Source of the DNA: a virus
Taxonomy: Duplodnaviria; Caudoviricetes
DNA length: 64,000 nucleotides
Direction: 5' to 3' (one strand)
Virus record (IMG/VR): IMGVR_UViG_3300028601_000020
Shown here: one piece after another, positions 6,501 to 58,766 of the stretch
Layout of the letters: each line of letters begins with the position of its first letter
Position numbering within the stretch: position 1 is the stretch's first letter
Translations under genes and position numbers: made by a program
The notes under the pieces: model-generated
Databases searched by the model: none
What the model was told of the DNA's origin: nothing
Seen by the model: the letters and a program-made list of their open reading frames with translations, nothing else

Positions 6501-8426
6501 ATGTCAATGGCAACACAACTTTCTCCGGGTATCGTCGCCCGAGAATGGGATTTGACCCAAATCGTTCCACAAATTGCTACTGCTGGCGCGGCTTATGTTG
6601 GTGCATTTCAGTGGGGACCGGTAAACAAAGTCAAACTTGTTTCTTCTGAAGAGAACCTTGTAAATATTTTTGGTACTCCAGACTCGGACACTTTTCTTCA
6701 CTGGTTCTCTGCAAAAAACTTTCTTGATTATTCTCGAAATTTGAAGCTGGTTCGTGTGGTTGAAGCAACTGCATTGAATGCGACTTCAAACGGAACCGGC
6801 GTCCAGATTATTAATGAAGCAGAATGGATTGATCAGCACTCGGCAGGAACAAACACTGTCGGTGAATTTGCTGGTCGTTATCCGGGTGAGATGGGCAATT
6901 CAATTAAAATTGAGATGGCTGACGGCAAGTCATTCGGTGCTGTTACTTCTGTGACGCTTACTAATGTTGGTTCTGGATATACAACTGTTGATGATGGTGC
7001 AACTGTAACCTTTTCTGCTCCCGGTGGAACCGGTGTAACTGCAATAGGAACCCTTACTGTTGTGGCTGATGTTGTAACTGGAATTGAAATTACAGAAAAT
7101 GGTTCTGGTTATCGGGTCGCCCCGACTGTAACAATTCCGCCCCCTTCTGGTGGTGGCACTGCTGCAACAGCAAAAGCAAATCTTTGGGCTTATCGTAATC
7201 AGTTCTTGACTAATCCGGGAACTTCTGACGAAGCCGCTTCAATGGGTGGCGCGAATGATGAAATGCATATTGTTGTCCTTGATGCAGATGGAAAAATTAC
7301 TGGTGAGGCCGGTAATGTTCTTGAACGTTTCTCGTTTGTTTCTAAGGCAAGTGATATCAAGTATTCTGATGGAACAACTGCATATTATGTCAGTGTTCTC
7401 CGTGACCGTTCAAAATATGTTTTTTGGATGGACCATCTTGAATCAGATTGGGGACAGACTGCATCTAATATCACTTTTACACAAATGGATACTCCGCATT
7501 CAGTAACTCTTTCTGGAGGAACTGATGGTAATGATGTAACAAATGATGAACTTATGCCTGGTTGGGATATGTTCAAAAATGTTGAAACAATTGATATCGG
7601 TATCCTCATTTCTGGTGCTGCTGACAATGTTCTGAAAGAATATCTTATCCAGAATATTGCAGAACACAGAAAGGACTGTGTTGCTTGTATTTCTCCTAAT
7701 CTGGATGATGTTGTTCATAACAACACAAATGAAGTTTCAGACGTTCTTGCTCTGAGAAACGTTCTTACTTCATCTTCATATGGTTTCTTTGATTGTAACT
7801 GGAAATACATGTTTGACCGTTACAATAACACCTTCAGGTGGATTCCTTGTAACCCTGACACTGCTGGTCTTATTGCATACACTGATGAAATTCGGGATGC
7901 ATGGTGGTCTCCTGCTGGTTACAATCGTGGCCATCTTAAAAACGTTGTTAAACTTGCATGGAATCCTGATAAGACTGATCGTGATGAACTGTATCAGAAT
8001 GGCGTGAATCCGATTGTTACTGTTGCTGGTGAAGGAACGATTCTTTTAGGCGACAAGACAATGTTGACCAAACCCTCTGCTTTTGATCGTATCAATGTCC
8101 GTAGACTGTTTATTACTCTTCGGAAGGCGATCACGAAAGCAAGCCGTTATGCACTCTTTGAATTCAATGATGCATTCACCCGTCTTCGCTTTATTCAGAT
8201 TGTTGAACCGTATCTCCGTGATGTTGAGGGCAGACGTGGTATTATTGGTTCCAGGGTGGTGTGTGATGAAACAAATAACACTGGTTATGTAATTGACAGT
8301 AATGGATTTGTCGGTGATATTTACGTGAAACCGGCAAGGTCAATCAATTGGATAACTCTTAACTTTGTCGCAACTCCGACAGGAATTGACTTTGACGAAA
8401 TTATTGGAACATTTGGTGATTTCTAA
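6501..8426 (+). CDS. gp18: tail sheath protein
   Basis: LSPGIVARE, FQWGP, WWSPAGYNRG, FDRINVRRLF, FEFND, KPARSINWI. Confidence 0.97.
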   Translation: MSMATQLSPGIVAREWDLTQIVPQIATAGAAYVGAFQWGPVNKVKLVSSEENLVNIFGTPDSDTFLHWFSAKNFLDYSRNLKLVRVVEATALNATSNGTGVQIINEAEWIDQHSAGTNTVGEFAGRYPGEMGNSIKIEMADGKSFGAVTSVTLTNVGSGYTTVDDGATVTFSAPGGTGVTAIGTLTVVADVVTGIEITENGSGYRVAPTVTIPPPSGGGTAATAKANLWAYRNQFLTNPGTSDEAASMGGANDEMHIVVLDADGKITGEAGNVLERFSFVSKASDIKYSDGTTAYYVSVLRDRSKYVFWMDHLESDWGQTASNITFTQMDTPHSVTLSGGTDGNDVTNDELMPGWDMFKNVETIDIGILISGAADNVLKEYLIQNIAEHRKDCVACISPNLDDVVHNNTNEVSDVLALRNVLTSSSYGFFDCNWKYMFDRYNNTFRWIPCNPDTAGLIAYTDEIRDAWWSPAGYNRGHLKNVVKLAWNPDKTDRDELYQNGVNPIVTVAGEGTILLGDKTMLTKPSAFDRINVRRLFITLRKAITKASRYALFEFNDAFTRLRFIQIVEPYLRDVEGRRGIIGSRVVCDETNNTGYVIDSNGFVGDIYVKPARSINWITLNFVATPTGIDFDEIIGTFGDF

Positions 8427-8533: not shown

Positions 8534-10015
8534 ATGAATAAATTACGACCATGGGTTTTGAAAAATTGTTTTTCAAAATCAGGAAAGCAAATTCTTTCTG
8601 ATAATTTTTTAAAAAAGAAGTTTCCGCTAAAAATAGAAGAAATTTTTAAAGAAACCTCTTTTTTAAAAGAAGATCAATCATTGAAAATTCGTTTATGGTA
8701 TATTTTAAACGGAGAGAACGAAAAAAGGAAATGTCCATTATGTGGTTCTATTATTAATGATGATTCAAAATATGATTTTTCAGTTTTTTGTTCTGTGAAT
8801 TGTAGGGCGAAATTTATTTCAAATAATGAAATTATTAAAAATAAAAGGAAGCAAACTTGCAAAAAAAGATATGGAGGTGAATCTCCATTTCATTCTTCTA
8901 CTGTTCAACAAAAAGTGAAAGATTCTGTGTTTGAAAAATATGGAGTTAATAACATTTCACAAGTTGAAGAAATTAAGGAAAAATCTGCTGTTTCTTATTC
9001 CTTGACATATCAAAACAACAAAAAAGAAACGCTCGAAAATTATAAACAAAAACACAACGAATTGTTTGAATTTTGGAATAAAACTAAAAGCATTGATGCA
9101 GTAAGCAAGAAATTTAATATATCATTTCATCATATTTATAAAATTCTTGGAAAATTTGATGTTGAATTTAATGTTAATAATGTTTCTTCTTATGAAATAG
9201 AATTACAAGAAATTCTTAAAAGTTGGAATGTTGATTTTGTTGCAAACGATAGACGAATCATTAAACCAAAAGAACTAGATATTTTTATTCCTTCAATAAA
9301 TCTTGCTATAGAAATAAACGGGATATATCATCATAGTATAAAAACGGTTGACCGTTTGATTGCAAAGAAAAATCATTTTAATAAAACGGAACAATGTGAA
9401 TCTCAAGGCATACAATTGTTTCATATTTTTGACAATGAATGGATTGAAAAGAAGGATATATGGATTTCAATGATAAGAAACAAACTTAATCTTGGAGAAA
9501 GAATTTTTTCAAGAAAGTGCAAAATTGTTAAACCAGAAAAATCTGAAGTTTTTCCTTTTTTAGAGAAAAATCATATACAAGGAAAACTTGGATATTTTGA
9601 TTGTATAGGTTTAGAATATAAAGGGGAATTGGTGTCTATAATGACGTTCATTAAAAGACAAAATAGAATTGAACTTGGTAGGTTTTGTTCTAAACTTAAT
9701 ACCAATGTTATTGGATCATTTTCAAAATTATTAAAAAATTCTGGTTATACAGAAGTTTATTCTTTTGGAAATAGACGATGGACAAATTCTTTGAACAATG
9801 TTTATGAGCATAACGGTTTTGATTTTCTGAGAAAAACTCAACCTAATTATTTTTATACAAAAAATGGAAATATATTTTCAAGAATAAATTTTCAGAAACA
9901 TAAATTAAAGGATAAGTTAGAAACATTCAATTCGGAATTGTCGGAATTTGAAAATATGTTTAATAACGGATATTCTATCATTTTTGATTCTGGCAACTTG
10001 CTTTACAAGAAATGA
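8534..10015 (+). CDS. putative homing endonuclease (Hef/Vsr-like PD-(D/E)XK)
   Basis: CPLC...FCSVNC, KKRYG/EKYG repeats, ELDIFIPSINLAIEINGIYHHS; very AT-rich insert after gp18. Confidence 0.75.
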   Translation: MNKLRPWVLKNCFSKSGKQILSDNFLKKKFPLKIEEIFKETSFLKEDQSLKIRLWYILNGENEKRKCPLCGSIINDDSKYDFSVFCSVNCRAKFISNNEIIKNKRKQTCKKRYGGESPFHSSTVQQKVKDSVFEKYGVNNISQVEEIKEKSAVSYSLTYQNNKKETLENYKQKHNELFEFWNKTKSIDAVSKKFNISFHHIYKILGKFDVEFNVNNVSSYEIELQEILKSWNVDFVANDRRIIKPKELDIFIPSINLAIEINGIYHHSIKTVDRLIAKKNHFNKTEQCESQGIQLFHIFDNEWIEKKDIWISMIRNKLNLGERIFSRKCKIVKPEKSEVFPFLEKNHIQGKLGYFDCIGLEYKGELVSIMTFIKRQNRIELGRFCSKLNTNVIGSFSKLLKNSGYTEVYSFGNRRWTNSLNNVYEHNGFDFLRKTQPNYFYTKNGNIFSRINFQKHKLKDKLETFNSELSEFENMFNNGYSIIFDSGNLLYKK

Positions 10016-35129: not shown

Positions 35130-36077
35130 ATGATAGAAGAAAGGAAAGAATTTTTATTAAAACATAAACTCATTTCATTTAGAAAGGGCTTTATAGTTTT
35201 AAGTCCACATTTCACTAATTGCCATTGGAAAAAATTTGATCAAAAAGAACTTATAGAAAGAATTAAAGGAGATTCTATAACTGAAAAAATCTATAGGTAT
35301 TTATATGATTATAATGAGGACGTTTATTGTATTTGGTGCGGAAAGAAAAAAGTAAAATTCAAAACAATAACCGATGGTTTTGCTGATTTCTGTTCTAAGA
35401 GATGTGTTGAAGAATATGTGAAAGCAAGAGGAAATTTTACGACCCTTGGATGGAAACACACCAAGGAATCAAAACAGAAGATGAAAGATGGTCATGCGGA
35501 TTTCACTGGTGATAATAATCCTTTTAAAAAAGCAATTGAAAGAGACCCAACCATAAGAAAACGGTGCAGTCAAAATAAAAAGAATTGGTGGAAGTCTTTA
35601 TCGGATGAGAGAAGAAAGGAAATCAGTAAAATTTTTTCAATTGCTCAAGCAAACAATGTAAATTTTTCTACAATACATAGAAATCATAGGTGTGGATGTT
35701 TTATATCTAAAAAGATGAAAAGAAAATTTTTCTTTAGAAGTTCTTGGGAATTGTTTGTTTGTGAATTCTTGGAAGATTGTGATGGTGTTATTGAATATTG
35801 TTTGGAAAAATTTTGTATTCCTTATATTAAAGATAAAAAACAAAGACACACAAGAATTGATTTTTGGATAAAAACAAACAACAATGAAATGATAGTTGAA
35901 GTGAAACCAGAGGGATTTATTCCATCAGCAATAAATCGTATCCAAGCAATGCAACAATATTGTATTGATAATTCAATGAATTTTTTTGTGGTTAGTAAGA
36001 ATAGACTGAATGAGGAATCATTGTGTGGAATTATTAAAGGAGAAATTCAGAATGAAAATTTTAAAAGATTTGAGTGA
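35130..36077 (+). CDS. putative homing endonuclease (TnsA-like PD-(D/E)XK) splitting the nucleotidyltransferase
   Basis: FRSSWE, IPY, IDFWI, VEVKP; TATAAATA inside an RBS-sequestering hairpin upstream. Confidence 0.75.
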   Translation: MIEERKEFLLKHKLISFRKGFIVLSPHFTNCHWKKFDQKELIERIKGDSITEKIYRYLYDYNEDVYCIWCGKKKVKFKTITDGFADFCSKRCVEEYVKARGNFTTLGWKHTKESKQKMKDGHADFTGDNNPFKKAIERDPTIRKRCSQNKKNWWKSLSDERRKEISKIFSIAQANNVNFSTIHRNHRCGCFISKKMKRKFFFRSSWELFVCEFLEDCDGVIEYCLEKFCIPYIKDKKQRHTRIDFWIKTNNNEMIVEVKPEGFIPSAINRIQAMQQYCIDNSMNFFVVSKNRLNEESLCGIIKGEIQNENFKRFE

Positions 36078-37199: not shown

Positions 37200-37445
37200 A
37201 TGAAAGAAATTACAAAAGAAGACATTGGATGGATTTATCATTTGGCTGAAATCGGGCTCCCAATTGTAAAGGAAGCCGACAAACTAAAATTCATGCTTGA
37301 AGAAATTGAGGAAATGAAACGTCGGGTAGCTGAACGCTATGAAGTAGTTGAAGAAATGATTAGAGGAAGTTGGATTCCTCTTGAAATTGAGGACGCGAAA
37401 CGCCGTCATAAACTTTCTTCTGACATTGAGGAGTCAATGAAATGA
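37200..37445 (+). CDS. hypothetical protein
   Basis: AGGAG RBS. Confidence 0.6.
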   Translation: MKEITKEDIGWIYHLAEIGLPIVKEADKLKFMLEEIEEMKRRVAERYEVVEEMIRGSWIPLEIEDAKRRHKLSSDIEESMK

Positions 37446-37942
37446 AAGCCGGTGATATCATCAAAGCTAAGTACAATGGACACAAACAAAAATTTCAAAT
37501 TCTTGGAGTGAATGACGTTATTACTGATGGTTGCCTAAATCTTGCTGTTCTTGATTTCGCGCCGTATTGTTATGAAGAAACAATTAACGTTTTTGCCGAA
37601 CAGTGGAAACCATCTTATTCTCTAAATAAAATGGGATTTTCTCCTACTTTCTGTCGGGAAGAAACAGTTAATGACGATCACTCCCATCGTGTTTATCTGA
37701 AACCTATTCTTGGTGATAAAATGGTAATTCCGCTTAAAGTTCAAGAAATTGTGGCCGAAGCAGTAGAAGAACATAATGCTGATGTTCGTTTTACGGCAAC
37801 AGAAGATGGATATGCTTTTTTGATTTTGTATACAGGTTCTTATAAAGGATTAACAATCCTCTCGTTTTTGCCTGATACATCTGAATACAATATTTCCTAT
37901 CTTTCTGGAAAGGCGCTTGATGCACTGAAATCTTTGTTATAA
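37442..37942 (+). CDS. hypothetical protein
   Basis: ATGA overlap with the upstream gene. Confidence 0.6.
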   Translation: MKAGDIIKAKYNGHKQKFQILGVNDVITDGCLNLAVLDFAPYCYEETINVFAEQWKPSYSLNKMGFSPTFCREETVNDDHSHRVYLKPILGDKMVIPLKVQEIVAEAVEEHNADVRFTATEDGYAFLILYTGSYKGLTILSFLPDTSEYNISYLSGKALDALKSLL

Positions 37943-38035
37943 AATTCAAAAAGACTAAATAAAACAGTTGACGATTTAAACAAAACAGTTTATACTGTTC
38001 TTGAAGCTGAGAGAGAACAAAAGAAGAGGAGAAAA

Positions 38036-38275
38036 ATGAAAGTTAAGGAACTAATTGAATTGCTGTCCACTGAATTTCCCGAAGATGAAGTAGTTCTGTC
38101 AATTGACGAAGAAGGAAACGGTTTTTCAAGCATAAACGGGATTTCAAAGTCTGTTTTTGACGGTGAATATATTTATCTTCGTGAATTGACTCCTGAGCTT
38201 GAAACTCAGGGATTTACTGAAGAAGACATGTATACTGGAGAAGATGGAAAGAATTGTGTTGTTCTTTGGCCGTAA
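38036..38275 (+). CDS. small early protein
   Basis: MKVKELIE...DEEGNGF...VVLWP; promoter at 37968. Confidence 0.7.
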   Translation: MKVKELIELLSTEFPEDEVVLSIDEEGNGFSSINGISKSVFDGEYIYLRELTPELETQGFTEEDMYTGEDGKNCVVLWP

Positions 38276-38282
38276 ATAAATT

Positions 38283-38315
38283 GCCCGAGTAGCTCCAATG
38301 GTAGAGCAATGCTCT
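38283..38315 (+). pseudogene. 5' half of a tRNA (probably Thr) truncated at the anticodon loop
   Basis: GCCCGAG TA GCTC CAATGGTA GAGC A ATGCT CT, then endonuclease leader; no matching 3' half seen. Confidence 0.7.
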
Positions 38316-38371
38316 ACCAATTTTCTATTTGTATAAATACTAGAAAGACAATTTATACAAATAGAGGATAA

Positions 38372-39175
38372 ATGGAACGAAATAAAAAACAGTGTTCAAA
38401 ATGCGGCAAGGAAATATCCCTCTCCAACATTAAAAAGCATGAAAAATCATGTGGACAGAAGAAACATTCTTCTATTGATGAAAGTTGGAAACAACAGAGC
38501 GGAAAATACAAATGCCCGTTTTGTTCAAAAGAATACACGAAAGCAGGAATATCAACTCATATATGGAGAACACATGGAGAAGGGAAAGATTTTGATCCAA
38601 ACATAGGATATAAAAATGGAAGGGTTGTGTGGAATAAAGGATTAACGAAAGAAGATGAACGAATTTTGAAACGAATCAAAACAATCAAAGAAAGATTCAA
38701 AACAGGAATGTATGGAAACAGATTTTCATTTCCTCATTCCGAAAAAACAAAAATGCGTCTTTCTGAATTAGCGATAAAAAGAAAATTTGGTGGAGTGACA
38801 AGATCCAGAAGAATTAAATATAAAAATAAAATTCTCGGAAGTTCTTATGAACTTGAGGTTGCAGTTTCATTAGAAGAGAATGGTATCAAATGGGAAACTT
38901 GTGACAGATTTAATTATGTTGATGTGAATGGGAAAAAAAGAACTTACACCCCTGATTTTTATTTACCTGATTATGACGTGTATCTTGATCCAAAAAATGA
39001 TTTTTTGATAAATAATATAAATCCAGCATTGGGATACAAGGATTCTGAAAAAATAAAGTGGGCAGAGGAACAAAATGGTGTGATCATAATTATTCTAAAT
39101 AAGAAAGAATTGAATTGGAATTCAATAAAAGAAAAAATAGCCACAATTGTTCAAGGTGAACACGCCGTTTTGTAG
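38372..39175 (+). CDS. putative homing endonuclease (zinc fingers plus PD-(D/E)XK)
   Basis: CSKC, CPFC...H...H, SSYE, YTPDFYLPDYDVYLDPK; late promoter within a 15-bp hairpin. Confidence 0.8.
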   Translation: MERNKKQCSKCGKEISLSNIKKHEKSCGQKKHSSIDESWKQQSGKYKCPFCSKEYTKAGISTHIWRTHGEGKDFDPNIGYKNGRVVWNKGLTKEDERILKRIKTIKERFKTGMYGNRFSFPHSEKTKMRLSELAIKRKFGGVTRSRRIKYKNKILGSSYELEVAVSLEENGIKWETCDRFNYVDVNGKKRTYTPDFYLPDYDVYLDPKNDFLINNINPALGYKDSEKIKWAEEQNGVIIIILNKKELNWNSIKEKIATIVQGEHAVL

Positions 39176-39211
39176 TCGGCTAAGGGGGTTCAATTCCTCA
39201 TTGTGGCTCCA
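39140..39211 (+). tRNA. tRNA-Thr(TGT)
   Basis: GCCACAA/TTGTGGC acceptor, anticodon loop TTTGTAG, TTCAATT T-loop, encoded CCA. Confidence 0.75.
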
Positions 39212-39223
39212 TAAAAACAAAAC

Positions 39224-39311
39224 GGAAGATTGGCAGAACGGTAATGCATCGGTCTTGAAAACCGTAGTCTGGATAAAACCAGTGGGGGTTCAAATCCCTC
39301 ATCTTCCGCCA
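39224..39311 (+). tRNA. tRNA-Ser(TGA)
   Basis: GGAAGAT/ATCTTCC acceptor, CT-TGA-AA loop, long variable arm, G discriminator, CCA. Confidence 0.92.
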
Positions 39312-39315
39312 TTTT

Positions 39316-39406
39316 GGGAGACGCAAATAAGGATAGAGGGTTCTATCGGCTGGCTGTAAACCAGTTCCCTAAGGGCAAGGCGTTCAACTCGACCCGTCTC
39401 CCACCA
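39316..39406 (+). tRNA. non-canonical tRNA-Tyr(GTA)
   Basis: 8-bp acceptor GGGAGACG/CGTCTCCC, GCTGG-CTGTAAA-CCAGT anticodon arm, short bulged T-stem, ACCA end. Confidence 0.75.
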
Positions 39407-39498
39407 TTTTTTCTGTTGACAGTCAAAACAAAATCAGATAATATACTTGTGAAAGTTGATTGAATGAGTTTAAAAATCTCAAACTGTGGGGCACAAAA

Positions 39499-39746
39499 TG
39501 ATTACTTTCTCAAAAAACGAAATTTCTGAAATCGCTAGCCTTATCCGGTCATGTGCTGTGTGGAGCGAAATGGTAAAAAACGGAATAAGGAAGCACTCGA
39601 ATTTTGATGAAAAGACTGAAGAAGGACGTGAAGGTTTGCACAAAAATGTTGAAAAAGTTCGGGAGGCTATGAGGTGGCATGATGCTGATGCCAAAAAGCT
39701 GAATGAAATGTTAGGTGAGGATGCCGTAACTCTTTTTAGATTATAA
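39499..39746 (+). CDS. small early protein
   Basis: ORF after the promoter at 39416. Confidence 0.55.
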
Positions 39747-39956
39747 CTGAGGAAAAAAGATGATTAAAGCAAAATCAGGAAAGTACAAACATGTTTGCTG
39801 GATAATTATTTTTGCCTGTCTGGTGATGGTTGGAAGAGCATCTTTCGTGACGTTCTCTTCTCCATCTGAAACACCGCCGCTTTATTTGAACGGGAGGGTT
39901 GTCATGAAGTAAATTTGTTTGTTCTTCTCCGCAACAAAAGGAGATGAATATAGTAC

Positions 39957-40526
39957 ATGCAAAAATGGAATGAATTTATTGATCTAATTCATTCCCCGGA
40001 TTTCTTAATGACTTTTTCTAATTATGTTGAAGACCACAAAAGGATATATGATCATGTAAAAATCAAAGGGGAAATGTTTGAGGAGATTTTGTATAAATCA
40101 TTAAAAACGTATTCGTCGGGAATTGAATGGAACCCGGGTGGGCATCAAGTTGGGTATGACATAAAGTTTTTTGATATTGGGATTTCTTGTAAGTGTGGTT
40201 CTGTAAAAAGCAACAAACTAATAATTTCAGGTAGCAGAACCACACTACATAAAACAATAAAAGAAAAGATTGATTTTTTGAACAAAAACCATTATGATGT
40301 AATTGTTTCATTTGCAGAAAATAAGAAAAAATATGAATTATATTGCCTTCCTCTTTCTTTCATTGAAATTGGAAAGCCAGAAGATTGGACAGAAACAGAA
40401 AAAGCGTGGGTTTACGAAAATAAAAAAGGGCGTTACAGAATAGCAAAATCCACAAGTGACCAAATGTGGTACAGTTTTTTCATTGAAACGGTTGTTGACA
40501 AAAAAATTTTAATATTAGACATTTGA
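39957..40526 (+). CDS. restriction-endonuclease-like (PD-(D/E)XK) hypothetical protein
   Basis: EMFEE...GYDIKF...ISCK pattern. Confidence 0.45.
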   Translation: MQKWNEFIDLIHSPDFLMTFSNYVEDHKRIYDHVKIKGEMFEEILYKSLKTYSSGIEWNPGGHQVGYDIKFFDIGISCKCGSVKSNKLIISGSRTTLHKTIKEKIDFLNKNHYDVIVSFAENKKKYELYCLPLSFIEIGKPEDWTETEKAWVYENKKGRYRIAKSTSDQMWYSFFIETVVDKKILILDI

Positions 40527-40541
40527 ATAGGAGACTGAAAA

Positions 40542-41015
40542 ATGATACTTTTTACTTGCCTTCCTCATTCTTGGGTTGATGTTATCACGAACAGTTCATC
40601 GGAACTGTTTACTTGTCGTGGTGAGTCAAAAGAAAGAATTGAAGAGCTAATTAAGAATGTGTATCCTGATTATTGGAAAGAATACGAACCAGTCAAAAGC
40701 ATTGACGAATTGACAGCAGCCGATTTGTATACTTATATTTCTTATAGATATGAACGTTGGTCAAACTCTGCTCAAAAATTTATCCGTGACACTCCTTGTG
40801 GTATTTCAAAAGATGATTTTTGGGTTACAAAAAAGTCTGGTATTAATGAATATACCACTCTCAATGAAGATTATGTGATTGAGAATAAAGAAAAGATTAT
40901 TGATGCAATTGATCCTAATCGGGAAATGTTTTTCTTGTTTTCTCTTGATAGTAACCCTAATTATGAAAAACAAGAATTGCTCTGTATGTTTATGGATCGT
41001 TATCATTTGGGGTAA
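40542..41015 (+). CDS. DVITNSSS-motif protein
   Basis: HSWVDVITNSSSELF near the N-terminus. Confidence 0.7.
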   Translation: MILFTCLPHSWVDVITNSSSELFTCRGESKERIEELIKNVYPDYWKEYEPVKSIDELTAADLYTYISYRYERWSNSAQKFIRDTPCGISKDDFWVTKKSGINEYTTLNEDYVIENKEKIIDAIDPNREMFFLFSLDSNPNYEKQELLCMFMDRYHLG

Positions 41016-41024
41016 AAAGACAAA

Positions 41025-41100
41025 TCCCGTATAGCTCAACGGTTAGAGTCGCCCGCTCATGACGGGTCGGTTACAGGTTCGAGTCCTGTTGCGGGAACCA
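41025..41100 (+). tRNA. tRNA with CAT anticodon (Met or Ile2)
   Basis: Cloverleaf, GCCCG-CTCATGA-CGGGT, GGTTCGAGTCC, CCA. Confidence 0.9.
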
Positions 41101-41108
41101 TTAAATGT

Positions 41109-41185
41109 CTCTCATTAGTTCAGTCTGGTAGAACACCTGCTTTGGGAGCAGGGGGTCGGCGGTTCAAATCCGTCATGGGAGACCA
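41109..41185 (+). tRNA. tRNA-Pro(TGG)
   Basis: CCTGC-TTTGGGA-GCAGG, GGTTCAAATCC, CCA. Confidence 0.93.
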
Positions 41186-41360
41186 TTTATTTTGGTACTA
41201 AAATGAAAAGCACAAAGAAGAAACTAAAAGAACTTGATGATATGATTCATCGTTTAAAAAATGTTGCAGACAAATATCCAGAAATGGATTGGTTTCTTCT
41301 TAGACAACTAAAAAGAGATCGGGATTTAGTGGCATCTACAATAGGCAAAAAGGAGAAAAA

Positions 41361-42275
41361 ATGAGGGTCGTCAACCATGAAGTTCAAGAAATCGTTGAAG
41401 TTCCAGACGATTTTGAAGAAATGCTCCGACATATTGAAAAAGTTGGAAGAATTTGTTATCAGTCACAAGAGAGAATTACAGAAGATTCAGCAGAAAAATT
41501 TGTCAAAATGCTTTTTCGCCGGGGTCATTGGGCAATGCTTGAGCATTCTTGGCTTGTATTCACTTCGTATCCTCTTGATTGGGACCAATGGCACCAGCTT
41601 TATGAGTTGACTGATAGCCGATTTTTACAAGTTCTAGTTGATGACAGAGATGAAAGAATTCCTATTATATGTGGAAATTGGCGGGCTTGGTTTGAGCAAA
41701 TTATCGGACCGGCAAAAGACAACAAAAACAAATTTGAACTTTTCAAACAATTGCCAGATATTATTAAGGATCTTTTTTCAGTGTATGACATTACGCTTGA
41801 TCGGGTTCATTTGAACGAAGTTGAAGATCCGTACCTTTACCCGAAAGCATACACTGCAACGTTTTTGACTGATCGTGCTGTTACTCATGAAATGGTAAGG
41901 CATCGGCCATGTGCTTTTGCTCAAAAGTCGCAACGTTTTTGCGCTGATCGTGAATATCTTGAATTTGTTGCTCCTTATTATCTTGATTTGACTTCTGACT
42001 CTTCAACTGGTGTGTCCACGTGGACGTGCCTAATGAACAGGATTGAAGAGGATTATCATTTTGCATTGCGAAATGGGCAGACAGCGCAAGAGGCACGTTC
42101 TATGCTTCCTAATTGCACTGCAACACAGATTGCGATGACCGCAGATAGTGTAGAATGGGAACATGTGTTTGATATGAGATGTGCATCGGATGCATATCCA
42201 CCAATCAGAAAACTTATGAGAGAAGTCAAAGAAACATTCAAGCACCGTGGATACATAAAGGACGAACAAAAATGA
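41361..42275 (+). CDS. thyX: FAD-dependent thymidylate synthase
   Basis: GRICYQS, GHWAMLEH, THEMVRHR...QKSQRF, EARSMLPN. Confidence 0.92.
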   Translation: MRVVNHEVQEIVEVPDDFEEMLRHIEKVGRICYQSQERITEDSAEKFVKMLFRRGHWAMLEHSWLVFTSYPLDWDQWHQLYELTDSRFLQVLVDDRDERIPIICGNWRAWFEQIIGPAKDNKNKFELFKQLPDIIKDLFSVYDITLDRVHLNEVEDPYLYPKAYTATFLTDRAVTHEMVRHRPCAFAQKSQRFCADREYLEFVAPYYLDLTSDSSTGVSTWTCLMNRIEEDYHFALRNGQTAQEARSMLPNCTATQIAMTADSVEWEHVFDMRCASDAYPPIRKLMREVKETFKHRGYIKDEQK

Positions 42276-42640
42276 AAAAATATATCTTGCATCAAAACGG
42301 AGGATTTGTTTAAGTTATTCACCTTAAAAACAAAGGGAGGCTTAAACAAAATGAAGTCTGTTACATTGATGGCAACGACAATTGATTCTAAGATTTACAA
42401 CCGGGCAAGAAAATTTTATCTTGAAAGTATGGGAGAAATTTCTTGTGCTTTTTGTCCTTATCATGATGGAGAGAATTGGCGTCGGCATCGGAAATCAAAA
42501 TGCTGGAAGCGTTTTCGCAAGACTCAATACAAAACTAAATAAGGAAACTTCCCGGGCACCTCTCAAAGCATGAAGTGCAAACCCGACTTGAATTGACAAG
42601 TATCGCCGTTAGGACGCTAACGGAATGGGTATTTAAAAAA

Positions 42641-42728
42641 GCTCGGTATCCCCACCATGGTCTTCTAAACCATTCACGTTAAAAAAGTGGGAAGGAGTGG
42701 AGAGGTTCAATTCCTCTACCGAGTTCCA
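42641..42728 (+). tRNA. D-armless tRNA-Arg(TCT)-like RNA
   Basis: GCTCGGT/ACCGAGT acceptor, ATGGT-CTTCTAA-ACCAT, AGAGG-TTCAATT-CCTCT, CCA; D region CCCAC can pair with GTGGG. Confidence 0.7.
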
Positions 42729-43450
42729 ACGTCTTTCTTTTTCTTGGTGTTAATTATATTTTTTTCTGTTATCAGCCCAAATTTTTTGAAACGAGTGTGC
42801 AAATTAACAAAACTATACGGATATTTTATTTTTTTACAAAAATCAACATAAGAGAGGTTTGAATTTCTAAAATCAGTGTATAAAGAAATTATATGTTCTT
42901 TCTCTTTTTGAGTTTTCTTTTGCAGTTCTTTTTGTGTTTTGTGTTTTTCTGAATATAAACTTTTATTTTTTTGAATGAATTTTTGAATATCAACTATTCT
43001 TCCTTTTTCGCAACCATTGTCTAAATATGTCTGAAGATCGGATTTTTGAACTTTTCTTGAAATAAGAGTATAAGGACAGTAAATCCATGTTGTGCCGTAT
43101 TGAGAGTTGTTAGATCCTTGTTGGAGAACTGACATGGATTCGGCAAAAAGTTTTCTGTGTTTTTCGTAAAGGTGAGAATTCCAGTATCTTTCTTGATTGC
43201 CACTTGCTGAATTCATCATGTTAAATGCTTTAATGAGTTTCCAAAATTTGGGGGATTTTGTTGGAACCATTTTAATTAAAAGATAATGACAAAGAAAATG
43301 TTTTCGTGCTGTAAGAGAAACGATGTTGGTGGTATCGTCGGAACCGCCCATACATCTTGGAATGATATGATGGTTTTCAGTATAACCACTTGAATCGGAA
43401 GATGAAGTCAGTTTGAAATAAAGTTTTGTGTATTTGTTTTTTAGAAACAT
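42716..43450 (-). CDS. HNH homing endonuclease (Mob-like)
   Basis: ENHHIIPRCMGGSDDTTNIVSLTARKHFLCH; minus-strand TATAAATA upstream. Confidence 0.88.
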   Translation of the reverse strand: MFLKNKYTKLYFKLTSSSDSSGYTENHHIIPRCMGGSDDTTNIVSLTARKHFLCHYLLIKMVPTKSPKFWKLIKAFNMMNSASGNQERYWNSHLYEKHRKLFAESMSVLQQGSNNSQYGTTWIYCPYTLISRKVQKSDLQTYLDNGCEKGRIVDIQKFIQKNKSLYSEKHKTQKELQKKTQKEKEHIISLYTDFRNSNLSYVDFCKKIKYPYSFVNLHTRFKKFGLITEKNIINTKKKKDVGTR

Positions 43451-43502
43451 GATGGTGTTTTAACCGTTAAATTTTAGTTTATATTATTATTTATATTTTT
43501 AA

Positions 43503-43522
43503 AATTTCCGGCCGGAGCACCA
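43503..43522 (+). pseudogene. orphan 3' end of a tRNA
   Basis: AATTTCCGG-CCGGAGC-A-CCA followed by a T-rich tract, at the endonuclease boundary. Confidence 0.55.
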
Positions 43523-43618
43523 TTTTCTTTCTCTTTTTTGTTGACGCGGATTTAAAAAGAATGTATTGTGTTTGTGAAAGTTAAGCGAAGTTCAAAACAA
43601 TTTTTATGGAGGTTGATC

Positions 43619-43960
43619 ATGTCTTACATTTCTGAAGAAAGCAAAGCGAAAATTGTTGAAATCGTTACCAAGAAAGGCAAGGGTCTTCGGGCGACGAAAC
43701 CGAAGACTGTTGATAATGATACGGGCCGCGCTGCATACATTTGGCGATATGTTGCTTTCTGTGTTTCGCCAAAATCAATTCATCATTGTCTGCCAATGAT
43801 GGCATTTTGCTATCTGTCAAATGAAGATTTCAAGATTGCTCAGGACGACAAAAAGTTTTATGATGAACTTCATGCCATTGTAAATGAGATTGTTGATTCT
43901 TTCCCGAAAGAATCGTGGCATGGTGTTCGTCGTTGGGGCACTGTTCTTGGTCGGATTTAA
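43619..43960 (+). CDS. early hypothetical protein
   Basis: GGAGG RBS; promoter at 43541. Confidence 0.65.
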   Translation: MSYISEESKAKIVEIVTKKGKGLRATKPKTVDNDTGRAAYIWRYVAFCVSPKSIHHCLPMMAFCYLSNEDFKIAQDDKKFYDELHAIVNEIVDSFPKESWHGVRRWGTVLGRI

Positions 43961-43968
43961 TTAAAAGA

Positions 43969-44042
43969 GCGGGTATCGTATAATGGTAATACTTCTGACT
44001 TCCAATCAGATAATCTCGGTTCAATTCCGGGTACCCGCTCCA
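43969..44042 (+). tRNA. tRNA-Gly(TCC)
   Basis: GCGGGTA/TACCCGC acceptor, TCTGA-CTTCCAA-TCAGA, U discriminator, CCA. Confidence 0.95.
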
Positions 44043-44063
44043 AATTTTTAAGGAATCAAGACG

Positions 44064-44570
44064 ATGCAAACAGTTCTTGTCTTAAATGGTGATTATTCTT
44101 TCCTTAGTGTTGTTTCACTGAAAAAAGCAATGCAGTATATTATTAAAGGAAAGGTGCAAGTTGAAAAATATCTTGAATCCACTATCTGTTCAGCGACAGA
44201 AACTTTTCAGATTCCTTTAGTTGTTCGTTTTGTTAAATTCATCCGGCAAATGTATAAAAAGAAAGTTCCATGGAGCAAGAAAAATGTACTTCTTCGGGAT
44301 GATGGTGTTTGTCAGTATTGTGGACAGACCGAAGGAGTAATGACAGTTGATCACGTCATTCCGAAATCACGAGGAGGACGAAATTCTTTTGAAAATGCTG
44401 TCTGTTCTTGTTTTCATTGCAATAATAAAAAAGGTGATCGGCTTCCATCCGAGGCAAATATGTTCTTGACAAAGAAGCCCATCCATCCTACAATAGCGGA
44501 GTTCACTCAAAAAGTATTGAAGAAATCAAACATTGAAAATATTTTCAAAACATGGTTCGGTGAAAATTAA
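44064..44570 (+). CDS. HNH endonuclease (McrA-like)
   Basis: VLVLNGDY, RDDGVCQYCG, TVDHVIPKSRGG, CFHCNNKK. Confidence 0.9.
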   Translation: MQTVLVLNGDYSFLSVVSLKKAMQYIIKGKVQVEKYLESTICSATETFQIPLVVRFVKFIRQMYKKKVPWSKKNVLLRDDGVCQYCGQTEGVMTVDHVIPKSRGGRNSFENAVCSCFHCNNKKGDRLPSEANMFLTKKPIHPTIAEFTQKVLKKSNIENIFKTWFGEN

Positions 44571-44748
44571 ATGAAACCTTACTTGACACAATATTGGAAT
44601 AAGTGTACAGTGTGTGGAAGATTCATTCCGTTTGAAGACTTTAATGATAAGAAAGCATTTTCAAAATTGGTTTCGCCTGATTCTGCATTTAGTGTTGAAC
44701 GGATTGAGTATTTTTGTAAAAAATGTGCTATTAAGGAGAAAAACGAAA

Positions 44749-44991
44749 ATGAGTGTTGACCATTATACCACTGAAATGCGTTTACTGGTTCATAATGATA
44801 ATACCGGAGATTATGTCATTGTAAAAGAAGATCCTGATGGTCTTGACATGGTAGGTATATCTTATGTTGACGGAGAAGGAAGCAAAGCAGAACGATTTCC
44901 TTTTATGGACATTGAAATGGCAGAAATTGTTGCCAGAAATATTCTTCAGGTTTGCGCGTTTGTTAAAAATAGGAAGTTAAAGGATGCATAA
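44749..44991 (+). CDS. hypothetical protein
   Basis: MSVDHY...EDPDGLDMV; AGGAG upstream. Confidence 0.55.
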   Translation: MSVDHYTTEMRLLVHNDNTGDYVIVKEDPDGLDMVGISYVDGEGSKAERFPFMDIEMAEIVARNILQVCAFVKNRKLKDA

Positions 44992-45175
44992 ACTTTCAAA
45001 ACGACTAAGAGAAGGAGTTGAAGCCGCGCCATGGGTAATTGAAGAAATTAAAAAACTCGAACAAGAATTAAACGATGCTTATCTTGAAATGTATAAACTT
45101 CGTTTAAAGTTTCTTAGTGACAAAGAAATCCACATTGAAGCGAAAAGGAGACATGACGAATGGTGCAAACAATAA
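44984..45175 (+). CDS. small hypothetical protein
   Basis: LSKRLREGVEAAPWVIEEIKKLE. Confidence 0.6.
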   Translation: MHKLSKRLREGVEAAPWVIEEIKKLEQELNDAYLEMYKLRLKFLSDKEIHIEAKRRHDEWCKQ

Positions 45176-45636
45176 AGATTCATTCAGTTGTAGATGTTAT
45201 AACTAATAGTTCTTCAGTGATTTATACTTATTCTGACAATGCTGTTAAACCACTAAAAGAACTTTTCACCGAAATTTTTAAGCTGCTTGGCGATCCTCAA
45301 CACGTTGATGATGTTTTTGATATCGTAGCCATACCAGATGACGATGTTTTGTATGATCATTTTATTAATTTTGTTGAAGATTTGGATCCTGAATGGCCTT
45401 TTTATGAAAGATACAAAAAAATCAGTGAAATGTCTCCTTCTTCAAGACAAGATTCTGAATTGGTGAATCTTTTTGTTGAAAAATATAAACGAGGAATCAA
45501 AGAAGATTGGATGGATGTTGGCGAAGATAGTGGTACCAAGTTGAAAATTTTCGTCAAAGATGAAAAATATAATGAACTGGCGAATAAAGCAATTAAGTTT
45601 CTTTATTCAACCCAACACGAATCTATTTATAATTAA
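45160..45636 (+). CDS. DVITNSSS-motif protein
   Basis: HSVVDVITNSSSVIY near the N-terminus; directly upstream of the radical SAM gene. Confidence 0.7.
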   Translation: MVQTIKIHSVVDVITNSSSVIYTYSDNAVKPLKELFTEIFKLLGDPQHVDDVFDIVAIPDDDVLYDHFINFVEDLDPEWPFYERYKKISEMSPSSRQDSELVNLFVEKYKRGIKEDWMDVGEDSGTKLKIFVKDEKYNELANKAIKFLYSTQHESIYN

Positions 45637-45650
45637 TTTTGAGGAGTAAT

Positions 45651-46514
45651 ATGAAATCCCGTTCGTTTTCTGAAAGTAATTACAAAGCAATGTTTGTTGG
45701 TGGCAAAACTTTCCGTTTCGCAATCAATCCTGATAAACCGATTTCGCCGCTTGAATATCCTGAATTTTCTGATGTGAAAATCACTTCGTTCTGTATGGGT
45801 CAGTGTTCTTATTGTTATCAAGACAGTGACCTTGAATCTTCTCATTCTGATAAACTGCTTGAAAAGATCAAAGATTTTTATGGGCCTATGACACAGAACC
45901 AAAGACCTTTTCAGGTTGCAATTGGTGGAGGCGAGCCGACTTCTCATCCTGATTTTGTGAAAGTGCTTGAACTGTTTGCTTCTCTTGGAATTGTTCCTAA
46001 CTACACAACAAACGGAATGTTTGCTCTGAACATGCCTTATGATGAACGAGAAACCTTGTATAATATGACAAAGAAGGTTTCTGGTGGTGTTGCTGTTTCT
46101 TGTCATGATCATTTGGAGATGTATTGGAAATTCGCCGTTGAACGTTTCGTTGAACGAAATATTAAAACAAATCTTCATATCATTATTTCTGATGAAAAGA
46201 GCGTGATTCAATTCAGAGAAATTTATGATGAATACAAAGACTCTGTTGATCATTTTGTCTTGCTGCCTTATCAGGTTATGGGAAGAGCAACACAGAAAAC
46301 AATTGATTATGAAGCATTGAAACGTCATTCTCCAGAAAACACAGATAAGATTGCATTCGGAGCAGACTTTTATCCTTATCTTGTTTCTGATCCGGGTCCA
46401 TTTAATGTTTCTCTTTATGAGCCTGAGATTTTTTCGTCTTATATTGATTTCACGTTTGACGAACCTAAGGTGTTTTATTCATCTTTTGACTTACGGGAAA
46501 AGGTTTTTGCTTAA
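45651..46514 (+). CDS. radical SAM protein
   Basis: CMGQCSYC (CxxxCxxC), QVAIGGGEPTSHPDF, NYTTNG. Confidence 0.92.
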   Translation: MKSRSFSESNYKAMFVGGKTFRFAINPDKPISPLEYPEFSDVKITSFCMGQCSYCYQDSDLESSHSDKLLEKIKDFYGPMTQNQRPFQVAIGGGEPTSHPDFVKVLELFASLGIVPNYTTNGMFALNMPYDERETLYNMTKKVSGGVAVSCHDHLEMYWKFAVERFVERNIKTNLHIIISDEKSVIQFREIYDEYKDSVDHFVLLPYQVMGRATQKTIDYEALKRHSPENTDKIAFGADFYPYLVSDPGPFNVSLYEPEIFSSYIDFTFDEPKVFYSSFDLREKVFA

Positions 46515-46520
46515 TAAAAT

Positions 46521-46599
46521 CTCCGGGTAGCCCAACTGGCAGGAGGCAAGGGACTTAAAATCCCTTAAGTGATGGGTTCAAATCCCTCCCCGGAGACCA
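46521..46599 (+). tRNA. tRNA-Leu(TAA), short variable region
   Basis: CTCCGGG/CCCGGAG acceptor, AGGGA-CTTAAAA-TCCCT, CCA. Confidence 0.9.
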
Positions 46600-46686
46600 A
46601 CAAATAAAAAGAGAAGAAGGTCAAAATGTCTTGACTGACTTCTCTTTTTTCGTTATTATGAAAATAAAAAACAACCGGAGAATATA

Positions 46687-47538
46687 ATGGAAGAGAAAAA
46701 GATTATTAATGTTACGATCAAAGACCCGCGGAAAAACATGTTTGCAGCCAAGAATGGCCGTCAATCCGTTATGATTTTGCGATGTTCTCATTCTGATAAT
46801 TGCGATATCTTTAAGAAAAAACAGTGCATCCGTCTTGAAATATTCAAGCATTTTTGTCCTTATGGTGATTATGAAGTAATTGAGGGATTTACACCAAGAG
46901 CAAAAAATTATGTCAAGTTTTTGAATGACGCAAAAGAAAAGTATTCTGAATACGTCAATCAATTGACTTGTATTTCAAAGGTAGGGTTTGAAAATGTTGG
47001 TGATTATGTTTATGTTCCTTATTCGTTCGTTCATCTTATTCCTGGAATGGACAAATATTTTCTTTCTGTTGGCCACATGTTTATGTCTGAACGACCGTTT
47101 GTCAAAAAAGAAGACTTCACGGTTGAATTCGTTCGTATGCTGATTAAAGGCAAACCAATAGCATATTTGGGTGATTTGATTACTGCTTATCAAAAAGAAG
47201 AGGTTCCAAAAATTGTTTATGATCTAAAATTGTTTTCTCCTGATCTTTATGAACAGATCAAAGACGAAGTTCAGACAAATCAAATGTTCAATCCAATCGG
47301 CAAAAAAGCCTTGCTTAAAACCCTTTCTCCGTGTACAATTGTGAAAGGAGAAGGCAAAAGTTTTGAAAGTACATGGGAATGGGATGGAGAAAGAATGCAT
47401 TATCAAAGTGGATTTATTTCATTGCCAACTAATGCTTTTCCTGAAACGGTTTCTTGTTCTTATGTTCCTTCTGACAAAGAGGAAGAAATAGTTTCTTCTC
47501 TTGACCAAGTGAACGAGAATACAAAATATGTTTGGTAG
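46687..47538 (+). CDS. hypothetical phage protein
   Basis: 283-aa ORF with GGAG RBS. Confidence 0.7.
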   Translation: MEEKKIINVTIKDPRKNMFAAKNGRQSVMILRCSHSDNCDIFKKKQCIRLEIFKHFCPYGDYEVIEGFTPRAKNYVKFLNDAKEKYSEYVNQLTCISKVGFENVGDYVYVPYSFVHLIPGMDKYFLSVGHMFMSERPFVKKEDFTVEFVRMLIKGKPIAYLGDLITAYQKEEVPKIVYDLKLFSPDLYEQIKDEVQTNQMFNPIGKKALLKTLSPCTIVKGEGKSFESTWEWDGERMHYQSGFISLPTNAFPETVSCSYVPSDKEEEIVSSLDQVNENTKYVW

Positions 47539-57518: not shown

Positions 57519-57540
57519 AAGATGAAACACTACAAAGAAT

Positions 57541-58305
57541 TTATTGTTGAGGACAATTGTTAAAATGCCATCTTCTCATTGCTGGTATTCCGCCTGATTT
57601 TCCGCAATGGGGGCAAACAATTTTAGGTTTTATTTTTCCTTTGTTTTTTGATTGTTTTCCTAATTTAGCAAGTCTCGTTTTATTCCTTGTTTCTTCTGAA
57701 ATATGTTTACCAAACATAGGATTATTTTCACCAGATTTTGCTTTGCTCATTTTTTGTTTTGTTTCTTCAGACATGACTTTTCCATTATGAGAATCGCTCA
57801 TTTTTTGTTTAGTTTCTGAAGAGTGATTTTTTCCAAACAGAGGATGATTTACCCCAGTTTTTGCGATTCTCATTTTTTGTTTTGCTTCTTCAGACATGAC
57901 TTTTCCTTTATGTGCTTTACTTAATCGCTGTCTTGTTTCTTCTGATTTTATTATGCCTTTATGAGAATTGCTCATTTTTTGTTTAGTTTCTGAAGAAATT
58001 TTTGAAGCACCATAACCGCCTCCAATAACATTATATGTGTCGGTACGATTAATAAAATTTTCATCAACAAGTTCTTTCTCTTTCTGGTATGCTTTCTCAG
58101 GAGTATAAAAGACATGAAGAGTTTCACGGATGAAATTCTCTTTGCCGTATTTCTTTATTGCTCTGTTGATTCCAACCCCTGAACCGAAATATCCATCAAA
58201 TAAAATGGGGAAATGAAATTTCTGTTTATGTTTGCCAATATAAAATTTTCCGTTGACAAGATTGGTAGTTTTGTATACAATATAAATATGTTTAGATTCT
58301 GACAT
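57541..58305 (-). CDS. GIY-YIG (Seg-like) homing endonuclease
   Basis: First 43 aa identical to 20562..21356; NUMOD3 repeats; CPHCGK...WHFNNC. Confidence 0.9.
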   Translation of the reverse strand: MSESKHIYIVYKTTNLVNGKFYIGKHKQKFHFPILFDGYFGSGVGINRAIKKYGKENFIRETLHVFYTPEKAYQKEKELVDENFINRTDTYNVIGGGYGASKISSETKQKMSNSHKGIIKSEETRQRLSKAHKGKVMSEEAKQKMRIAKTGVNHPLFGKNHSSETKQKMSDSHNGKVMSEETKQKMSKAKSGENNPMFGKHISEETRNKTRLAKLGKQSKNKGKIKPKIVCPHCGKSGGIPAMRRWHFNNCPQQ

Positions 58306-58427
58306 GCTATACCTCGAATATAGATGTTGGGGTTTAGTCTTTCACAAGAATTGGCGTTCTTGTGAAAGACGTTATACATAGTATTTATAACAATTAACAA
58401 TTAACAATTATTAAAAAGATGAAAAAG

Positions 58428-58766
58428 ATGAAACATTTTAGTTCGTTTATTGTTGAAATGTCCGAGGAAATTCTTGATGCCGAAGTAACTTTTACTCCGT
58501 ATGATGTAAAGACAGACAAAAACGGAAAAGTAACTTCATTTAAAATCAGAACCGCTTTTGAAGAAGGACGCAATTCCATTGTCATGAAAGACAAAGGACT
58601 CGAACGTGCATTTATTGCGTGGTACGGAGAAGCAAAAATTAAAAAAGCACTCGAAAAAGGTGGCGTTTCTTCTCTTCACAAAACCGAAGTTTATTCCAGT
58701 ATTTCAAATAAAGGACTTGATATGTATATTTACTTTGATAATAAGAAAATATCGCTTAAAGTATAA
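58428..58766 (+). CDS. hypothetical protein with CTS-like start
   Basis: MKHFSSFIVE. Confidence 0.65.
   Translation: MKHFSSFIVEMSEEILDAEVTFTPYDVKTDKNGKVTSFKIRTAFEEGRNSIVMKDKGLERAFIAWYGEAKIKKALEKGGVSSLHKTEVYSSISNKGLDMYIYFDNKKISLKV

Follow-up and report, generated by a model that had tools for sequence, protein, structure and literature searches.

Group I introns occur in the anticodon loops of tRNA genes in bacteria and phages. I-Ssp6803I, a PD-(D/E)XK homing endonuclease, is encoded in such an intron in tRNA-fMet. Islands and prophages that carry an integrase also enter tRNA genes, often at the anticodon loop, and bring with them a copy of the displaced tRNA end.

Some homing endonucleases are free-standing. 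SegB of phage T4 is a free-standing GIY-YIG homing endonuclease encoded in the T4 tRNA gene cluster. It cuts tRNA genes of phages lacking it, and its own tRNA region is inherited through repair with co-conversion of the flanks (PMC2330249). In fungal mitochondria, mobile endonuclease ORFs carry a foreign gene end, as seen in atp6 of Allomyces macrogynus and in atp6, atp9, cox2, and nad3 of Glomus. These ORFs are inserted without an intron in an essential gene and supply a diverged copy of the displaced part, and the native part is left nearby as an unused remnant (PMC3630166). Phages also contain fractured genes, in which a free-standing endonuclease of the I-Bth0305I type splits an essential gene without an intron and split inteins rejoin the protein (PMC2677866).

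Here, a locus in the tRNA array of an uncultured T4-type phage is described. The window is the whole stretch of phage DNA that was analyzed, 64,000 nucleotides in length. Its positions 38316-39211 are, with good probability, a free-standing homing-endonuclease cassette inserted in a tRNA gene that the phage already had, within its anticodon. Upstream of the cassette stands an orphan 5′ part of a tRNA gene, and at its right end stands a complete tRNA gene, hereafter the spare tRNA.

The closest phage case is SegB, which is likewise encoded by a free-standing nuclease gene in a tRNA array of a T4-type phage. SegB belongs to the GIY-YIG enzymes, recognizes a motif of the T-psi-C stem-loop and sits between tRNA genes, whereas the nuclease of the window is of the PD-(D/E)XK type. 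No broken tRNA, spare tRNA or overlap between ORF and tRNA has been reported for SegB, whereas the window cassette has all three. The mobile ORFs of fungal mitochondria are closest in logic: the window contains a native remnant (the orphan) and a divergent tRNA, and the related locus L123 contains both native halves. The fungal ORFs target protein-coding mitochondrial genes, replace the C-terminal part in frame and encode LAGLIDADG or GIY-YIG enzymes. In the window, by contrast, a tRNA gene of a phage is the target, and the replacement is an entire tRNA.

Homing of group I introns shares with the cassette the anticodon-loop site, a PD-(D/E)XK nuclease and, based on L123, the tRNA halves as homology arms. 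Function is restored there by splicing, whereas the window cassette would restore it by a second gene, without a ribozyme. Integrase-borne islands resemble the cassette in their tRNA-gene target and in keeping tRNA function by imported tRNA sequence. They rely on a tyrosine integrase and carry a short, identical copy of the tRNA 3′ end, while the cassette has a nuclease only and a complete divergent tRNA. The endonucleases of the I-Bth0305I type have a related fold and, like the cassette, split a phage gene without an intron; their catalytic motif is unlike the E...PD...DxK of the window nuclease, and the protein pieces are rejoined there by split inteins. A full-text literature search, which is not proof of absence, returned no paper on this layout for phage tRNA genes, and the combination of nuclease and spare tRNA appears to be unpublished for such genes.

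Layout of the Locus

The window codes for T4-like terminase, sheath, portal, and replication proteins, and a search of INPHARED found no close phage. The initial annotation, made from the sequence before the present analysis, had listed five features at this locus: an orphan tRNA 5′ part, an inverted repeat, a late promoter, a nuclease ORF, and a complete tRNA-Thr. All five are in the sequence (Table 1).

Table 1. Features of the cassette and its left flank. Positions are those of the window.
Feature	Position	Strand	Evidence
Orphan tRNA 5′ part, from an older gene	38283-38315	+	sequence; edit distance; no nearby matching 3′ strand
Hairpin and T-rich tail	38299-38331	+	terminator scan; fold energy
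Putative left end of the inserted cassette (leader, late promoter, ribosome-binding site)	38316-38371	+	motif enrichment; likeness to L123/L039
Late promoter TATAAATA, T4-type	38332-38339	+	motif enrichment
Ribosome-binding site GAGGA	38364-38368	+	4 nt before ATG
Homing-endonuclease-like gene, 267 aa	38372-39175	+	ORF call; Pfam/PHROG; PDB match; predicted fold
Complete divergent tRNA-Thr(UGU), encoded CCA	39140-39211	+	ARAGORN; cloverleaf fold; covariation in relatives

The window contains 22 copies of the promoter motif, where 3.9 would be expected. The nuclease ORF follows it, as had been annotated, and is free-standing, with its own promoter and ribosome-binding site, outside any intron or intein. 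It is the sole ORF between the orphan and the tRNA; neither a tyrosine nor a serine recombinase gene is located there. A tRNA-Ser gene lies to the right of the cassette, at 39224-39311. The overlap of the ORF end with a complete tRNA-Thr(TGT), also part of the initial annotation, agrees with the ARAGORN call and amounts to 36 nt. The first 36 nt of the tRNA gene double as nuclease coding sequence, namely its final 11 codons and the stop codon. This stop codon, TAG, corresponds to the anticodon-loop positions 36-38 of the tRNA.

The stretch before the promoter resembles its counterpart in L123 and L039, two loci from the relatives described below. Based on the likeness to L123, the break in the window is placed after loop nucleotide 33, one base from the break in L123.

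Orphan tRNA 5′ Part and Hairpin

The orphan contains, in order, the 7-nt 5′ strand of the acceptor stem, positions 8-9, a D arm with a 4-bp stem and an 8-nt loop, position 26, the 5-nt 5′ strand of the anticodon stem, and the loop nucleotides 32-33. It is broken off where the anticodon should begin. Its likeness to tRNAs was measured by edit distance, as a general HMM built on 5′ halves lacked the power to recognize even true tRNAs. The first 26 nt of the orphan are at an edit distance of 4 from the 5′ end of a real phage tRNA. All of the 2974 random 26-mers from the window were at 6 or more edits. In a 7-mer search of the window, no acceptor 3′ strand complementary to the orphan was seen nearby: the complementary 7-mer occurs only at 6537 and 17569, both inside ORFs, and as the orphan's own complement.

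The D arm of the orphan is found letter-for-letter in many bacterial tRNAs, and 67 of the 75 matches are tRNA-Trp, while 2 are tRNA-Thr. The first letters of the orphan are GCC, which is also how the Thr orphans of related loci, and tRNA-Thr in general, begin. The anticodon of the orphan is lost. It had been described as a Thr-like tRNA 5′ half. The 5′ part ending at the anticodon loop and the GCC start are both present, and the Thr-like label was based on the GCC start alone; the origin of the orphan from a tRNA-Thr is only probable.

The inverted repeat noticed at the junction is perfect over 9 bp (38299-38307 and 38311-38319) and encloses a 3-nt loop. Its right arm is partly junction sequence, not tRNA. 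The hairpin is composed of the 3′ strand of the orphan D arm and the junction, and 5 bp are inherent to the old tRNA, while 4 come from the junction. It passes the terminator scan with its T-rich tail, and its fold energy is -16.1 kcal/mol (z = -4.6). It is a probable intrinsic terminator for the gene at 38036-38275 and a probable insulator before the nuclease gene. With transcription of the upstream gene ended at this hairpin, the nuclease would probably be made only from the late promoter.

The Nuclease

The nuclease contains two N-terminal zinc fingers and a C-terminal domain of ~130 residues (about 142-267). In 32 homologues, the catalytic pattern E...PD...DxK is conserved: E160, D195, and K208 are invariant, and D206 is nearly so. 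The best PDB sequence match is T7 endonuclease I (E = 0.016). Weak matches are seen to Pfam Phage_endo_I and to resolvase/endonuclease families of PHROG, and neither Pfam nor PHROG gave a match to a GIY-YIG domain.

The AlphaFold model has a mean pLDDT of 85, with values >90 over the core. Foldseek alone returned no match to the model at E below 0.001. PD-(D/E)XK folds were found by a wide search of the model with VIA-align. Residues 142-267 match Bax1, TnsA, Vsr, VRR-NUC, and I-Bth0305I (3r3p, Z 6.8), with Z of 6.8-8.2, and Hjc is also among the folds matched. I-Ssp6803I (structure 2ost) is matched at Z 4.6. By its conserved motif and predicted fold, the nuclease is a member of the PD-(D/E)XK superfamily.

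The family is large, with 383 matches. One nuclease, P0001, is 99% identical, and the closest relatives, among them P0002 and P0005, are at 58-60%. N-terminal modules, namely zinc fingers and NUMOD3, are swapped across the family. Swapping of N-terminal modules, including NUMOD3, is typical of homing endonucleases. The zinc-finger PD-(D/E)XK family probably recognizes tRNA genes at the anticodon, and it is open to study as a source of sequence-specific nucleases.

The Spare tRNA

The tRNA gene at the end of the cassette scores 26.9 bits with Rfam, under the gathering score of 29, and is accepted by ARAGORN as tRNA-Thr(TGT). Its minimum-energy fold is the cloverleaf (z = -3.3). Two pairs are non-standard, and the acceptor stem, which is its own, is perfectly paired. 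Its body differs from that of the tRNA from which the orphan comes. It is in these respects the complete and divergent tRNA-Thr that had been annotated. In the set of cassette-linked tRNA-Thr, 13 of the 16 pairs hold their pairing through double changes, which indicates that the helices are under selection as tRNAs. Judged by these features, the spare tRNAs look functional.

Recurrence of the Layout in Related Phages

Loci with a relative of the nuclease in IMG/VR (31 + 57) are nearly all phage tRNA arrays. After the removal of duplicates, about 44 distinct loci were available for counting overlaps between ORF and tRNA. In 21 of them, the ORF ends inside a tRNA gene on the same strand, 6-39 nt inside and most often 15. 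The overlapped tRNAs are Thr (15 loci), long-armed UAU tRNAs (4 loci), Val(UAC), and Ile(GAU) (one locus each). Some relatives of the nuclease have no linked tRNA.

Of 41 loci examined with the edit-distance test described above (null rate 0/2974), at least 10 have an orphan tRNA 5′ part immediately before the ORF, and a few more are recognizable by eye. The orphans usually stand right before a motif similar to TATAAATA. Where their ends are readable, they stop at the anticodon nucleotides 34-35, and the remaining anticodon letters fit the isotype of the downstream tRNA: Thr at several loci, Val at L051, and Ile at L080.

In a quick tree of the nuclease domain, the clades do not match the body types of the tRNAs; strict co-inheritance of nuclease and tRNA is for this reason not claimed. 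The type of tRNA-Thr fused to the PD-(D/E)XK nuclease in L007 is fused in L017 to a nuclease of another, unrelated family (HNH). The mismatch of the tree and this fusion indicate that the pairing of nuclease and tRNA has been reshuffled over time and is not fixed. The HNH gene of L017 (L017:6640-7469; phrog_655) lies behind a late promoter and ends 15 nt inside a tRNA-Thr with a long variable arm, in the same frame. At the equivalent place, an ordinary tRNA-Thr is present in L022:7840-7998, with the same neighbours, and in L014:6978-7052.

Several loci show other arrangements, and broken tRNAs are frequent in the tRNA arrays of these phages. In L008:4818-4939, an orphan 5′ part abuts a long-armed tRNA(UAU), and of the nuclease ORF no more than a few bases from its end are left. 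It looks like a cassette after the loss of its endonuclease following invasion. The orphan at L036:1427-1460 is ~93% identical to the cassette-type tRNA-Thr at L048:1917-1990. The likeness suggests serial overwriting, a later cassette having replaced the spare tRNA that came with an earlier one. The nuclease-linked "tRNA-Ile(UAU)" at L054:2179-2274 and L074:1066-1160 measure 95-96 nt and have a long variable arm, an uncommon form for a tRNA with the UAU anticodon. In L107 (minus strand, from 10292 downwards), the common tRNA-Thr is broken after the 3′ strand of the anticodon stem. In L118 (minus strand, about 4380-4330), an orphan 5′ part of tRNA-Asn follows an intact tRNA-Thr.

Insertion into an Intact tRNA Gene

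L123 retains both parts of the old tRNA. Nucleotides 1-34 are followed by the promoter, the nuclease gene, and a complete divergent tRNA-Thr, and then by nucleotides 36-76. In L039, L119, and L123, the 33-nt orphan matches the first part of a tRNA-Thr(UGU) gene with 100% identity. This gene is found unbroken in 28 further viral contigs, which are not close relatives of the L123 phage; one intact allele lies at L126:7568-7642. The old 3′ part in L123 starts two bases after the cassette tRNA and is ~93% identical to the intact tRNA-Thr. As read from its sequence, L123 is a clean insertion in the anticodon, with the spare tRNA within the inserted segment. In L080, too, the old 3′ end is retained behind the cassette tRNA.

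It was also considered whether only a replacement 5′ half is supplied and joined to the resident 3′ half. This model is refuted by the complete tRNA between the old halves of L123. It is also ruled out by the comparison of L014 and L017, in which the whole tRNA differs.

The initial annotation had named empty alleles in relatives as a check. The tRNA-Thr split in L123 is uninterrupted in the 28 contigs above, none of them from a close relative of that phage. For the window phage, no cassette-free allele was found with exact sequence patterns of the orphan and the spare tRNA or in flanking-protein and metagenome searches. The flanking proteins (166 aa and 189 aa) have no relatives in IMG/VR. 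No old tRNA 3′ half is located in the window, so the argument for insertion at this locus proceeds by analogy. The metagenome contigs L089 and L090 match the window at 37442-37670 with 99-100% identity and end inside the upstream gene, ~600 nt before the cassette. These ends may reflect strain variation that broke the assembly.

Six GC-rich contigs matching the 35-nt orphan of L044 were considered as an empty site and rejected, as the tRNA 5′ part is followed there by unrelated, att-like DNA. In these contigs (L091-L093 and L095-L097; e.g., L092:357-400), the 5′ part of tRNA-Thr extends through the anticodon loop before the unrelated DNA begins. They may represent the attachment-site remnant of another kind of element.

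Proposed Mechanism and Alternative Explanations

The recurrent layout and the insertion in L123 support intron-less homing with a tRNA carried along, as had been proposed from the window itself. Three parts make up the proposed cassette: a late promoter of the T4 type, the gene for the zinc-finger/PD-(D/E)XK nuclease, and a tRNA-Thr(UGU) that is complete and differs in its body from the old one. When cassette-bearing and cassette-less phages infect one cell, the nuclease would cut the ordinary tRNA gene of the latter close to its anticodon. The break would be repaired from the cassette-bearing genome, with the old tRNA halves and the flanks as homology, and the repair would copy the cassette into the recipient. 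The insertion would kill the old tRNA, there being no ribozyme to splice it, and the spare tRNA would restore the decoding function. The different stems of the spare could make it uncuttable and a poor recombination partner for the old halves. At the window locus, the old 5′ part seems to have survived and the old 3′ part to have been lost, and the old D arm seems to have been recruited as a terminator hairpin ahead of the late promoter. Due to the overlap of the ORF and the tRNA, a cut by RNase P at the 5′ end of the tRNA would separate the nuclease message from its stop codon. As a speculation, RNase P processing could limit the production of the nuclease.

The nuclease gene could instead have landed beside a resident tRNA-Thr, the orphan being derived from another tRNA, such as tRNA-Trp, or having come with the element. 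There would then be neither like-for-like replacement nor carriage of a tRNA. The D arm of the orphan is indeed typical of bacterial tRNA-Trp and its anticodon is lost; on the other hand, its GCC start is that of the Thr orphans of the relatives, and tRNA-Thr with an identical D arm exist. The long-armed UAU tRNA of L022 stands without the upstream nuclease or orphan present in L014, two unrelated nuclease families are fused to the same tRNA-Thr type, and the nuclease tree disagrees with the tRNA types, all of which would fit a resident tRNA. Such a tRNA does not fit L123, where the complete tRNA is inside the inserted segment, between the old halves, nor the agreement of orphan and downstream isotypes wherever both are readable. 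A resident tRNA with a nuclease gene beside it is an unlikely explanation.

A chance arrangement is very unlikely. In that case the tRNA-like stretch would be a decayed pseudogene or a mere terminator hairpin, unrelated to a nuclease gene in an ordinary intergenic gap of the array. Other fragments do occur in phage tRNA arrays, and the hairpin suffices as a terminator motif by itself. Yet at least 10 independent loci show the order orphan, promoter, nuclease, tRNA, with the break at the anticodon, and no random 26-mer comes nearly as close as this stretch to the 5′ ends of real tRNAs. Hardly credible is a split or intron-containing tRNA, in which the 5′ part would be joined to a 3′ half through a group I intron, a bulge-helix-bulge intron, or in trans. 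Group I introns do occur in the anticodon loops of bacterial and phage tRNA genes, and the intron-encoded PD-(D/E)XK enzyme I-Ssp6803I matches the nuclease model (Z 4.6). The initial annotation had reported no intron core, and an Rfam scan of 37500-47500 at E up to 1 found no intron family, including Intron_gpI. A matching and spliced 3′ half, which the same annotation had named as evidence against intron-less homing, was looked for in the window and is not present, nor is a 3′ strand complementary to the orphan acceptor. Without an intron family in the scanned region and a matching 3′ half in the window, there is nothing to splice. Besides, the downstream tRNA is a whole tRNA, in which both acceptor strands are present and pair perfectly, and the hairpin with its T-tail would end the transcription of the orphan.

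Homing with a spare tRNA would be a third way for a homing endonuclease to occupy an essential gene, beside self-splicing introns and inteins. The gene is destroyed and a diverged working copy is brought along, and no self-splicing intron is needed. It would account for tRNA fragments and pseudo-tRNAs in phage tRNA clusters as well as for unusual tRNA bodies. It would also explain nuclease ORFs that run into tRNA genes, an annotation trap.

Tentatively, these cassettes could be regarded as a distinct, widespread, and undescribed class of mobile elements, "overwrite" homing elements, which invade essential RNA genes with a nuclease-proof spare; for the present this is a possibility rather than an expectation. 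If there is such a class, the cassettes would be a driving force behind tRNA turnover in phages and behind the odd shapes seen among their tRNAs, such as long variable arms and rewired D arms. They would overwrite each other serially, as the likeness of the L036 orphan to the L048 cassette tRNA suggests, and tRNA processing may be coupled to nuclease dosage. The altered tRNA bodies might escape host defences that cut tRNAs.

Other Features in the Window

Two further tRNA-like genes are found in the window. One, at 39314-39408, was missed by ARAGORN and Rfam. It has an anticodon-hairpin loop with GUA (Tyr) and an encoded CCA, and shows a long acceptor helix, a short variable hairpin, and a weak T arm. 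The other, at 42640-42725, has UCU in its anticodon loop. Its acceptor and T arms are good, a normal D arm is lacking, and the anticodon arm is followed by a long insert; with the tRNA-Sec model of Rfam it scores 28.8 bits, below the threshold. An HNH-like ORF on the minus strand (42716-43450), with a TATAAATA of its own, adjoins it with its 3′ end.

In the region 57523-58470, the minus strand encodes a GIY-YIG/NUMOD3 endonuclease (57541-58305), whose late promoter is at 58382-58389. The gene is flanked by a 13-codon remnant, MKHYKEFIVE..., and by the intact start, MKHFSSFIVE, of the gene at 58428-58766. Judging from the two starts, this is the same logic of break and replacement applied to the N-terminus of a protein gene.

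More endonuclease-like genes are located at 8534-10015, 35130-36077, and 44064-44570 (phrog_3339 homing endonuclease, TnsA-like N-terminal domain, HNH). This phage is rich in endonuclease-like elements.
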